This document shows, piece after piece, positions 9,022-30,412 of a stretch of 41,274 nt of DNA. Positions within the stretch are counted from its first letter, which is position 1. Each line of letters begins with the position of its first letter. Under the pieces are notes generated by a model. That model saw only the letters and a list, made by a program, of their open reading frames with translations, had not been told where the DNA came from and did not search any database. The stretch spans positions 1 through 41,274 of the forward strand of contig JANOZA010000776.1 in assembly GCA_031429155.1 (NCBI GenBank). Reading direction: 5' to 3'. Origin of the DNA: Verrucomicrobiota bacterium. Lineage in GTDB: Bacteria; Verrucomicrobiota; Verrucomicrobiia; Verrucomicrobiales; V1-33. The translations under genes were made by a program, and so were the position numbers.

Positions 9022-9768
9022 ATGACGGACAATAAAACAGCCCCCGGGGCGCCCGCTCTTTTCGAGCCGACGCGCTGGAGCCTCGTGCTCCGAGCGCTGG
9101 CTGAGGACACGTCCCGGCGGAAGGTGGCGCTGGGGGAGTTGTGCGGGGCTTACTGGTATCCGCTCTATGCGTTCCTGCGACGGAGCGGACGCGGCGTGGA
9201 GGATGCGCAGGATTTGACGCAGGATTTTTTCGCGCGGCTGATGGATGGCAGTCTGCTGGCGACGGCGGATCCGGCGAAGGGAAAGTTCCGCACGCTGCTC
9301 CTGGCGGCATTGCAAAACCTCGATGCGAATGCATGGAAGGCGGCGCGCACTCAGAAACGCGGCGGCGGCGCGGAGGTGGTGCCGCTGGACAAGGCGATGG
9401 CGGAGGACCGCTGGCTGGCGGATGCGTCGCTGGAGGGATTGCCGGAGGCGGCGTTTGACCGGGCGTGGGCGAATACGGTGATGGACCGCGCCAGCCGGCA
9501 GTTGCACGCGGAGTTCGTGGCCGGGAACAAGGCGGAGTTGTTCGCGGAGTTGTTTCCGCGGCTAAATGGCGGTGGCGGCGGCGGCGCGGCGGGCGGACTG
9601 GCGGCGGTCGGCGAGCGGCTGGGCATGACGGAGGCGGCGGTGAAGATGGCGCTCTCCCGCATGAGGCAGAGATTCGGCGATAGTCTGCGCGCGGAAATCG
9701 CCCAGACGGTTGGCTCGCGCGGCGATGTGCAGGACGAACTGCGTTACCTTCTGACGGTTTTCTTGTAG
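9022..9768 (+). CDS. ECF sigma-70 factor of the kinase-associated (ECF-STK) type
   Basis: FEPTRWSLV N-terminal motif, YWYPLYAF, region 2 DAQDLTQDFF, QKRGGG, FDRAWA, and region 4 LGMTEAAVKMALSRMRQRF. A kinase gene follows about 10 bp downstream. Confidence 0.9.
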   Translation: MTDNKTAPGAPALFEPTRWSLVLRALAEDTSRRKVALGELCGAYWYPLYAFLRRSGRGVEDAQDLTQDFFARLMDGSLLATADPAKGKFRTLLLAALQNLDANAWKAARTQKRGGGAEVVPLDKAMAEDRWLADASLEGLPEAAFDRAWANTVMDRASRQLHAEFVAGNKAELFAELFPRLNGGGGGGAAGGLAAVGERLGMTEAAVKMALSRMRQRFGDSLRAEIAQTVGSRGDVQDELRYLLTVFL

Positions 9769-9778
9769 GAACGTGGAC

Positions 9779-29200: not shown

Positions 29201-30412
29201 ATCGCGCTCACCGGCACGGATGCCAACGACCAGCCGCTGATGTTTGTCATTCTCACCCTGCCCACCCGCGGCACGCTCACCGGCACGTCTCCGAACTTCA
29301 CCTACACTCCGAATCCGAACACCTTCGGCCCCGACAGCTTCACCTATCGGGCCAACGACGGCCTCCTGGATTCCAACACCACCTCCGTTTCCATCACCGT
29401 CCAGTCAGTGAACGATGCGCCCGAGACATGGTTCGAGATCTTCTCCGTGAACGAGGACGCGACGCTCACCGTCGCCGCGAACAGGAGCGTGCTGCTCAAC
29501 GACAGCGATCTGCACGCCGGTGCTCAGGCGGAAAACAACAATCCGCTCACCGCCACGCTGGCAGATGCGCCGGCCCACGCTGCGAGCTTCACTCTGAATC
29601 CGAACGGTACCTTCAGCTACCTGCCAAATCCCAATTTCTACGGCATAGACAGCTTCACCTACCGGGCTGTGGACGCTCTCGGCGCGGCTTCGGAACCCGA
29701 GACCGTGCTCATCGCCGTGCGCGCCGTGAATGATGCTCCCGTCGCCGCCCCGCAATCCGTCACCACTCTCGAAGACGTGCCCCGCGCGGTTCACCTCCGC
29801 TCCTCGGATGTGGACGCCCTGTTCGCCTGGAATCCCGGGCCTGCCCCCCACGACTCCGATCCCAACTTCACCATCGTCACGCCCCCAGCCCACGGCACCC
29901 TGTCCGGCATTGCCCCGGACCTCGTCTATACACCCAACGCCAACTATCACGGCAGCGACAGCTTCACCTTCACCGCCAATGATGGCATGACTGCCAGCAA
30001 CGTCGCCACGGTAACAATCACCATCCAGGCCGACAGCGACGGAGATCAGTTGCCCGACGCATGGGAACTCGGGAGTTTCGGTTCCATGATCTACAATGGC
30101 AGCAGCGACCCGGACCACGACGGCCAGAACAACACCTTCGAACTCCTCACCGGCACCGGCCCGGCGAATGCCGGCGACAGCCTCACCATCGAGCACGCCA
30201 GCCCCTCACCGACCGGCGGAGTGCTCCGCCTCCATCCCGTCCGCCCCGGTGTGATCTACGTCCTCGAAAGCAGCACCGATCTCGTCGCCTGGGACCGCCT
30301 CTCCGAAAACACCTACGAAGTCCCCGGCCCCGGCGCCCTCTACGATGAACGCACGGATGTGGGCCAGCGCCGACGCTGTTTCTACAAGGTGACGGTGGAA
30401 ACGGCCCCGTAA
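26228..30412 (+). CDS. Large exported adhesin: RCC1 beta-propeller + HYR-like domain + tandem cadherin/Big_9-like repeats + DxDxD C-terminal domain
   Basis: ATG 26228 overlaps the upstream stop (ATGA); signal peptide; about 7 copies of DGTLWxWGxNxxGQLGDGT; TATAVDAVTG..C.PPSGSVFPGGVTTVTCTA; 7-8 repeats of P.HGTLSG..P..TYTP..NY.G.DSFT..ANDG; DSDGDQLPDAWE. Confidence 0.88.
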   Translation: MKVNFLFSAALVLTWAGTLFNASALQPQTVPFVSVGVKSPAAPSFALPEFSSAGLPVTWEVLVGPATVSGHTITLTGVNGPVTMRGRQAGDAVYDPAPDRYVTFPVDTGGGFLKISAGDTHVTGIKSDGTLWSWGSNTQGQIGDGTTTGHAVPAPVTVPTADPWTDVACGGAHTVARRADGSLWAWGANADGQLGVGNTVDRVFPTRIGTLTSWAGVACGANHTIAWKTDGTLWTWGDNLQGQLGDNTIADRTAPVRVGTASDWVEAAGGSLHTIGRRAGGSLWCWGHNASGQLGDGTTTRRLTPVRVGLDSNWAQVSAGFVFSAARRTNGTLWAWGNNASGQLGQGHRTAASAPQQVGSDTDWAAINCGAACAIGRRTNGYLWAWGDNSAGQLGDGTTADQLLPVQTLEGPWSTLTVGAACVLGVRSGFIWSWGTNDFEQLGLPAGTTAVSAVPPGSRLPAPYPQSAVAPPAAVGVNQIFSPAVTSALPPFPNVLSGPAQVTADGHRLSFAAGGTVQYQVSHPGDSTWQPIAAQNFTLTIVDAIGPVFTAAPGNQFVQLDTPAGTVVNFTATAVDAVTGPATVVCVPPSGSVFPGGVTTVTCTADDGLANFSTHTFTVTVNRPPAVPSFTVSSLPPTLSLTLSATDADDDDTTLSIVTPPANGTVSGTMPNFTFTPSAGFVGTTTLTYKANDGSIDSLPGAVTLEVLNFPPSVDAQSLATSAFAPLPVTLTGSDGNAQSLTFSIVMPPVQGTLSGTPPAMTYTPGVGAEGPDSFTFRAFDGIAFSDPETISILVNDAPSVPARNLTTTEDIALPITLTGSDPNDHTLAFSIVTPPAHGSLSGIGASLTYTPATDYIGPDSFTCQANDGYTDSAPATVSIDVQAANDAPVANPVSVASIPPLNFTLSGSDTENSPLTFAIVTPPATGTLSGTSPNLTFAPAPGFLGPISFTYQANDGTDDSPPALITLDVLNAAPAVEALALITNEDTALPIALTGTDANDQPLMFVILTLPTRGTLTGTSPNFTYTPNPNTFGPDSFTYRANDGLLDSNTTSVSITVQSVNDAPETWFEIFSVNEDATLTVAANRSVLLNDSDLHAGAQAENNNPLTATLADAPAHAASFTLNPNGTFSYLPNPNFYGIDSFTYRAVDALGAASEPETVLIAVRAVNDAPVAAPQSVTTLEDVPRAVHLRSSDVDALFAWNPGPAPHDSDPNFTIVTPPAHGTLSGIAPDLVYTPNANYHGSDSFTFTANDGMTASNVATVTITIQADSDGDQLPDAWELGSFGSMIYNGSSDPDHDGQNNTFELLTGTGPANAGDSLTIEHASPSPTGGVLRLHPVRPGVIYVLESSTDLVAWDRLSENTYEVPGPGALYDERTDVGQRRRCFYKVTVETAP

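Follow-up and report, generated by a model that had tools for sequence, protein, structure and literature searches.

The window, a stretch of 41,274 nucleotides that makes up one contig (C776) of a Verrucomicrobiota metagenome-assembled genome (MAG; 6.8 Mb in 919 contigs, 92.9% complete), carries a conserved envelope module built around a giant exported protein of 2,727 amino acids (aa; 16345..24528, + strand) and a 572-aa exported protein of a family designated P0003 (12317..14035, +). The same module includes a 739-aa trimeric-fibre protein (14095..16314, +) and, as a frequent accessory, an exported protein of 276 aa (24530..25360, +) that combines a TSP3-type calcium-binding repeat with a beta domain at its C-terminus. 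This module is smaller than the run of eight genes that an earlier note on the window had flagged as a single TcA-like system, and comprises about half of them. The family of the giant protein is matched by no library model, and no publication on it was found. The explanation that we tentatively prefer, and to which we give slightly less than an even chance, is a complex of the envelope or cell surface that is exported by Sec, carries a membrane-inserting hairpin, does not depend on TcB/TcC and has the giant protein and its P0003-type partner as its core.

All eight of the flagged genes are present as co-oriented open reading frames (ORFs) on the + strand, at 9022-9768, 9773-12166, 12317-14035, 14095-16314, 16345-24528, 24530-25360, 25320-26231 and 26066/26228-30412, and homologues of the window are labelled Verrucomicrobiota. 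Using all eight proteins as queries, we examined 25 related loci, drawn from 24 other genomes and a second copy in the source genome. A P0003-type match is present in 23 of the 25 loci, the remaining two having no upstream DNA, and lies upstream of the giant gene in each of the 23 loci where upstream DNA is available. A fibre gene with the common N-terminal ~170 residues is found in 13 loci, the S74 part of the fibre in three, and a protein of the 276-aa type adjoins the giant gene, either before or after it, in 14-15. The remaining flagged genes are much rarer, with a homologue of the MORN protein in 4/25 loci, the RCC1 adhesin near full length in 1/25, the sigma-like protein beside the module in 1/25 and the kinase as one weak match on the opposite strand, also in 1/25. 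Because of these synteny counts, we regard the giant and P0003-type proteins as a conserved system with fibre and calcium-binding accessories. The earlier note had also counted control by an extracytoplasmic function (ECF) sigma factor and its kinase, the MORN protein and the RCC1 adhesin as parts of the system. At the frequencies observed, their membership is unsupported, whereas the 572-aa, fibre, giant and 276-aa genes do co-occur across many genomes. Rather, they are lineage-specific neighbours, acquired in this lineage, that may regulate or decorate the module but do not define it.

Ten of the 25 loci represent a second sub-type, in which the P0003-type protein is split into two genes (~400 aa and ~600 aa) and the giant gene is directly followed by a gene for a cadherin/Calx-beta/RTX-like protein of ~890 aa and one for a SurA-like peptidyl-prolyl isomerase of ~325 aa. 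The source genome itself holds a second complete module of the window's sub-type, split over contigs C540 and C497, where the gene order is 276-aa type, 572-aa type, S74 fibre and giant (~2,796 aa). A cadherin-type adhesin is encoded ~4.6 kb downstream of this second giant copy and resembles the C-terminal third of the RCC1 protein of the window. The P0003 family has at least 682 members, all unnamed or annotated as 'hypothetical', and the 572-aa protein matched nothing in Pfam, NCBIfam, PHROG or PDB.

Signal-peptide-like N-termini, with a basic n-region and a hydrophobic core, are read from the sequence of the 572-aa, 739-aa, 2727-aa and 276-aa proteins and of the RCC1 product starting at 26228, so that five products look Sec-exported. 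This agrees with the five signal peptides and one transmembrane (TM) anchored product described in the earlier note, the latter being the 303-aa MORN protein, except that a TM-like segment of the kinase (residues 401-422) had been left uncounted.

The giant protein consists of a variable N-terminal region of ~540 residues and a conserved core spanning residues ~540-2727, and distant homologues align from residue ~540-570 through to the C-terminus. The most conserved part is a C-terminal module formed by residues 1530-2727 (20932..24525, +), which displays 40-83% identity and 88 invariant columns across the 31 giant homologues of our alignment A1. With these last 1,198 residues as query, at least 2,112 homologous proteins were retrieved, and the family forms 1,555 clusters at 50% identity. 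The conserved module is always C-terminal, in proteins of about 2,000-5,300 aa, and some relatives carry precomputed Pfam domains in the variable N-terminal region, which we take to be of the lectin, PA14 or propeller type. Among 401 sampled Verrucomicrobiota genomes, the family is found in 56, representing 42 of 185 genera. The giant protein has no match in Pfam (E up to 10), NCBIfam, PHROG or PDB sequences, and the names of its homologues among the 120 matches listed are all 'hypothetical' or uncharacterised repeat labels. Literature searches on Verrucomicrobia/Planctomycetes, TcA and Tc toxins, with supplementary files outside their scope, found neither the family nor TcA-like proteins of the phylum.

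One contig labelled as part of a Bdellovibrionales MAG also carries giant and 276-aa genes, which are most similar to the locus of a Verrucomicrobiales MAG. The giant family is present in 1/22 genomes of the order of that MAG, namely in the MAG itself and in none of the other 21, and the contig is probably either mis-binned or the product of a single transfer. A role of the giant family as the fibre anchor in Bdellovibrio was also considered and is unsupported, given a single genome of 22 and a contig that is possibly mis-binned.

To place the giant protein relative to the A subunit of Tc toxins, we used SepA of Serratia entomophila pADAP and 119 relatives as the TcA comparator. Profile-profile comparison with hhalign yielded one collinear match, between giant residues 2119-2379 (extending to 2435) and SepA residues 1914-2149 (extending to 2185). 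On the giant side, this region (residues 2119-2435; 22699..23649, +) encompasses a helical hairpin with the tip P2209-x3-G2213, followed by a conserved FDL...AYDYET segment. The two best runs gave E 1.8e-4 (probability 48%, 233 columns) for 88 family rows against 60 TcA rows and E 2.7e-4 (probability 41%, 260 columns) for A1 against the TcA-side alignment A3, and in both the P-x3-G tips are positioned opposite each other. As controls, reversed sequences gave E 0.18 and 0.32, six unrelated profile pairs, in which TcA or the giant C-terminus was compared with the P0003, 276-aa and fibre N-domain families, gave E 0.18-0.5, and none of 30 block shuffles made in a sub-run reached the real score of 32.8 (mean 19.7, standard deviation 4.1). 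The hairpin is also laid out alike in the two families with respect to Pro-free runs and hydropathy. In the giant family, Pro-free runs of 94 residues before and 160 residues after the tip surround an invariant Pro and Gly (P120/G124 of A2, an alignment of 20 diverse hairpin segments), and in TcA the corresponding runs around the invariant P2006/G2010 are 121 and 150 residues. Family hydropathy is highest around the tip in the giant family and in TcA alike. Within this region of the giant protein, hydrophobicity is greatest next to the tip, and the hairpin together with the segment that follows it are the sole parts of the giant protein that resemble anything known.

A number of observations weigh against a TcA-type channel and, in part, against membrane insertion as such. 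While SepA, as positive control, matches the four Pfam families TcA_TcB_BD, Neuraminidase, ABC_toxin_N and VRP1, the giant protein matches none of them at E up to 10. The TcB-binding domain PF18276, which is recognised in SepA at 3.9e-51, matches 0/20 of the giant-family hairpin segments, and the hhalign match reaches only the first ~110 positions of this domain. BLASTP of the giant protein against SepA remains at noise level, and PDB searches with giant-family profiles (E up to 1 or 10) list no TcA chain. The hhalign signal itself depends on the alignments used, falling to E 0.002 (probability 14%) for A1 against SepA alone, E 0.0039 (probability 8.6%) for A2 against A3 and E 0.098 (probability 0.6%) for a shallow full-length alignment, and one block shuffle scored 30.6 against the real 32.8. 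Nothing upstream of giant residue 2119 matches TcA significantly, the sole extra collinear match has E 0.074, and the last 348 or 209 giant residues do not match the TcA tail (E 0.075-0.35). The order of motifs in the tail (a beta strand, PLPF/LPFEG and a final alternating strand) appears alike by eye, but was discounted as the statistics do not support it. In addition, hydropathy stays below TM level along the whole giant protein, long helical hairpins occur in many unrelated proteins, and nothing in the data, the module being known from sequence, points to a target cell or to killing.

Taken together, true homology between the giant protein and TcA, confined to the channel hairpin, has roughly an even chance. 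As judged from these profile comparisons, the giant protein is outside the TcA family as it is defined, and the label 'TcA-like' that the earlier note attached to it is weakly supported: a borderline profile-profile similarity over ~260 of the 2,727 residues stands, but neither a TcA Pfam domain nor a TcA chain in the PDB was recovered. Should the hairpin similarity fail, the module would be left with no known relative.

The suggestion that the system operates without TcB and TcC is supported by the distribution of the TcB marker TcdB_toxin_midN, which has no match in the source genome (92.9% complete) and occurs in 17 of the 401 Verrucomicrobiota genomes, comprising 5/56 with the giant family and 12/345 without it. 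PF18276 is above cut-off in 0/401 genomes, a result of unproven sensitivity as the 14 control genomes were also negative. By these markers, the giant family is unaccompanied by a canonical TcB/TcC pair. The open frames that carry TcdB_toxin_midN in the 17 genomes range from about 420 to 3,650 aa, many of them exceeding 2,000 aa, and resemble TcB-like cocoons that lack a canonical A subunit.

In the model that we prefer, the core of the complex would be formed by the giant exported protein and its P0003-type partner, which is a single 572-aa protein here and the product of two genes in the second sub-type. Accessories would differ between the sub-types, with a trimeric fibre (common N-domain, variable shaft and tip, here S74-chaperoned) and the small calcium-binding TSP3 protein in that of the window, and a cadherin/Calx-beta protein and a SurA-like periplasmic chaperone in the other. 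Because all module products carry Sec-type signal peptides, assembly would be expected to occur outside the cytoplasm, and the SurA-like chaperone of the second sub-type fits such periplasmic handling. The complex would then be shown on the cell surface or released, and the fibre and calcium-binding proteins would bind a target surface. The Pro-free hairpin of ~250 residues would insert into a membrane, either as an anchor in the cell's own outer membrane or as a pore in a foreign one, and would do so without a TcB/TcC cocoon. That the giant family constitutes a new branch of TcA-like translocators, Sec-exported, P0003-partnered, devoid of a cocoon and aimed by calcium-binding adhesins and by exchangeable fibres similar to the mosaic adhesive trimer (MAT) fibres of Bdellovibrio, we consider unlikely, although its chance is not negligible. 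Contact-dependent injection, as envisaged in the earlier note, is speculative.

The main rival to a membrane-inserting complex is a surface adhesion platform without a pore, which strikes us as somewhat doubtful while retaining a sizeable chance. Here, the giant protein would be a stalk or anchor showing variable lectin-like domains, the hairpin would act as a spacer or anchor, and the giant and P0003-type proteins would hold fibres and calcium-binding adhesins for attachment to particles, algae or polysaccharides. Such a platform would be consistent with the variable N-terminal parts and the Pfam domains that some relatives have there, with the adhesin-like character of all the accessories (fibre, TSP3, cadherin, Calx-beta, RCC1) and with the lack of any toxin or enzyme domain in Pfam and NCBIfam scans of the module. 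At least 12 proteins with the fibre N-domain in the source genome could use one docking platform, and the available part of PMC10769870 proposes that the N-domain of MAT fibres binds an unidentified surface element. However, conservation peaks in the C-terminal 1,200 residues and not in the adhesive parts, a spacer needs neither an invariant hairpin tip nor a hydropathy peak, and the profile similarity is specifically with a pore-forming segment. We consider it improbable that the module is instead an extracytoplasmic enzyme, with the ~500-residue block before the hairpin being catalytic on envelope or environmental polymers and the rest binding the substrate. Verrucomicrobiota are polysaccharide degraders, and residues 141-344 of the C-terminal piece contain dense invariant polar columns (R141 G142 R143 D144; H203 G204 D205 ... 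H209 Y210). Nevertheless, these columns do not imply catalysis, because the non-enzymatic TcA shell is equally dense in them, and no enzyme family was matched in Pfam, NCBIfam or PDB at permissive thresholds.

Two further explanations are, in our estimation, highly improbable. A canonical Tc toxin with TcB and TcC encoded elsewhere in the genome would be in keeping with the RHS-repeat ORFs on at least 10 other contigs of the source genome, with a 168-aa RHS fragment 770 bp downstream of the cluster and with one partial SpvB match (profile positions 2-52) on contig C710. This explanation is disfavoured by the absence of TcdB_toxin_midN from the source genome and its presence in only five of the 56 giant-carrying genomes, by the PF18276 count (with controls that are also silent) and by a giant tail unlike the TcB-binding domain. 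The giant protein moreover has a signal peptide, whereas TcA, to our knowledge, has none and is released by lysis. Release of TcA by lysis is likewise described in the available part of PMC10847048. The other explanation, a prophage or tailocin remnant in which the fibre gene encodes a tail fibre, would account for the matches of the fibre to PHROG tail-fibre families (down to 6.8e-20) and to a phage long tail fibre structure (PDB 6f45, 5.4e-8), with an equally slight chance of being correct. Against it, the other four proteins scanned match no PHROG, the module is syntenic across 42 genera, and cellular S74 fibres are known from Bdellovibrio, as documented in the accessible portion of PMC10769870.

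In the 739-aa fibre protein, the signal peptide is followed by an N-domain of ~140 aa that is rich in beta structure, then by the fibre region and the Peptidase_S74 domain. The S74 assignment made in the earlier note is secure, with a Pfam E of 6.6e-8 and 33.2 bits against a cut-off of 22, and the catalytic SDxxxK motif of this chaperone/protease is present as SDARIK at residue 516. In 13 of the 25 loci, the gene at the fibre position has the N-domain in common, and the remainder of the protein is variable. Against the Bdello_MAT_N model (NCBIfam NF053851), the fibre scores 20.1 bits, below the curated cut-off of 60. Proteins with the fibre N-domain number at least 12 in the source genome (322-979 aa, on 13 contigs), a multi-member repertoire like the 21 MAT fibres reported for Bdellovibrio, and the two that score best are those located inside the two modules. 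Prediction of a complex between P0003 residues 29-572 and fibre N-domain residues 31-175 gave a score of 0.00 against a mark of 0.32, which speaks neither for nor against binding.

The TSP3_bac match of the 276-aa product is below threshold (E 8.2e-4), and the protein otherwise has no match in Pfam, NCBIfam or PHROG. Part of it (residues 129-230) is similar to positions 1316-1409 of the RCC1 ORF, counted from 26066, with 34% identity and E 3e-10. The RCC1 product (26228..30412, +) is an exported, adhesin-like protein in which an RCC1 beta-propeller is combined with HYR, cadherin-like/Big_9 repeats and a TSP3/C-terminal domain (WD40_RLD 2.5e-100, Big_9 1.5e-75, Cadherin_5 9.9e-50 in Pfam). Between these two genes lies that of the TM-anchored MORN_2 repeat protein of 303 aa (25320..26231, +, start uncertain; 35.4 bits for MORN_2, cut-off 29.6). 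A single, strong TM segment of this protein spans residues 99-122, with a mean hydropathy of 2.57. MORN proteins of the YwqK type have an immunity role in polymorphic toxin loci. No recognised toxin domain was found in any neighbour of the MORN gene in Pfam and NCBIfam scans.

Translational coupling of the last four genes, as put forward in the earlier note, can be followed in the letters at two of the three junctions, namely TAA-T-ATG between the giant and 276-aa genes (24526-24532) and ATGA between the MORN and RCC1 genes (26228-26231). At the third, ATGs at 25320 and 25350 of the 303-aa ORF overlap the stop codon of the 276-aa gene (25358-25360), but coupling at 25350-25360 is doubtful because the N-terminal codons are unmatched in homologues and hairpins are present at 25420-25550. 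Specifically, the first 71-160 codons have no counterpart in 4/4 homologous loci, where the alignments start at residue 72, 104, 115 or 161 of the ORF. The GC-rich structured stretch that follows the stop codon (25361..25600, no strand assigned) contains two identical, perfect GC hairpins (CCCGGGGC, a 3-nt loop and GCCCCGGG; 8+8), at 25420-25438 and 25532-25550. They are separated by 112 nt, and an imperfect hairpin of 23 nt lies between them at 25458-25509. This stretch is either a spacer or the unconserved 5' part of the MORN ORF. The true start of the MORN ORF may be near 25575-25600, in which case a structured spacer would separate the two genes and this junction would be uncoupled. The hairpins may represent a short repeat element, or else an attenuator located between the 276-aa and MORN genes.

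At the upstream end of the cluster, the divergent sigma-70/ECF-like protein (9022..9768, +) has sub-threshold matches only. It falls below the curated cut-offs for Sigma70_r2 (20 versus 24 bits) and TIGR02937 (24 versus 42.9), and region-4 models are unmatched, the one match of this kind being to HTH_1 (19.2 versus 26.6). The adjacent gene encodes a Hanks-type Ser/Thr kinase of 797 aa (9773..12166, +; Pkinase 3.2e-42), which contains the TM-like segment noted above and a C-terminal part of ~370 aa without a family. A scan of 8700-28000 for promoters and terminators was uninformative, with one promoter-like site (2.7 expected) and 21 terminator-like sites (14.2 expected), most of the latter lying on the opposite strand and none of them coinciding with a gene boundary of the cluster. 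With a 10-kb stretch as query, the sequencing runs found to contain the locus were DNA runs from freshwater-sediment and sediment metagenomes, and there was no RNA run among them.

Directly after the cluster, at 30495-31688, are two gene fragments that look more like remnants than intact genes: the 168-aa ORF with the RHS repeat, and a 206-aa ORF that matches just positions 2-142 of the DUF1501 model, which has 390 positions. Elsewhere in the window, 37600-38681 contains a clear ECF sigma gene, in which region 2 and region 4 both exceed threshold, and after it a 180-aa ORF that overlaps it and lacks a family match, a pair that may be a sigma/anti-sigma couple unrelated to the cluster. A 731-aa ORF without a Pfam match (5192-7387) is situated between a glycosyltransferase-like ORF and a divergently oriented MraW methylase gene.

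Of the four recurrent proteins, three are without a match above cut-off in Pfam, NCBIfam or PHROG, and yet the giant family spans 1,555 clusters and 42/185 sampled genera of a phylum that is abundant in the environment. Were the hairpin a TcA-type channel, Tc-like perforation would be untied from the A-B-C toxin format and from release by lysis, and the question would arise of what role such a device plays in free-living freshwater and soil bacteria. Under the translocator reading, a contact-dependent perforating machine would be present in ~1/7 of the sampled Verrucomicrobiota genomes, and the giant protein would be a candidate for the surface element where MAT-like fibres dock. If the hairpin is not of the TcA type, the module would still be among the larger uncharacterised envelope systems of Verrucomicrobiota. 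Cultured carriers among the search matches (Actomonas aquatica, Haloferula chungangensis and strain DG1235) make the question testable.

Compared with known systems, the sigma/kinase pair of the window resembles the kinase-activated ECF systems of the ECF43 type, as exemplified by PknS-EcfK of Xanthomonas citri, in that a sigma-like gene is followed after a 4-nt gap by a gene for a TM kinase and the pair is located upstream of a secreted apparatus. According to the available part of PMC13147305, the kinase PknS phosphorylates the ECF and thereby switches on a type VI secretion system against amoebae. In contrast, the sigma-like protein of the cluster lies below every curated threshold and the pair stands beside the module in one of the 25 loci, and its link to the module is local. 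The 739-aa protein, in turn, is organised similarly to phage S74 fibres and to the MAT fibres of Bdellovibrio, for which the accessible text of PMC10769870 gives a signal peptide, an N-domain, a fibre region and a C-terminal S74, and it likewise has an N-domain of ~130-140 aa directly after the signal peptide and an S74 domain at its C-terminus. It differs in being encoded within a giant-protein module, an arrangement not reported for Bdellovibrio in that same text.

The comparison with TcA reveals an overall likeness that is accompanied by clear differences. The ascending arms of the two hairpins are unequal by ~27 residues (Pro-free runs of 94 in the giant family versus 121 in TcA), the giant protein starts with a Sec signal peptide and ends in a tail unlike that of TcA, and TcB/TcC are neither adjacent to it nor co-occurring. 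Its P0003-type partner and fibre are unknown in Tc loci, the neighbours of SepA being SpvB/TcaC-type and RHS genes. The likeness lies in a protein size of 2,400-2,700 aa, in the combination of a variable region on the receptor side with a conserved C-terminal half and, within that half, in a borderline similarity between putative helical hairpins. These are free of Pro on either side of an invariant P-x3-G tip, are hydrophobic around it and are followed by a conserved aromatic/acidic segment.

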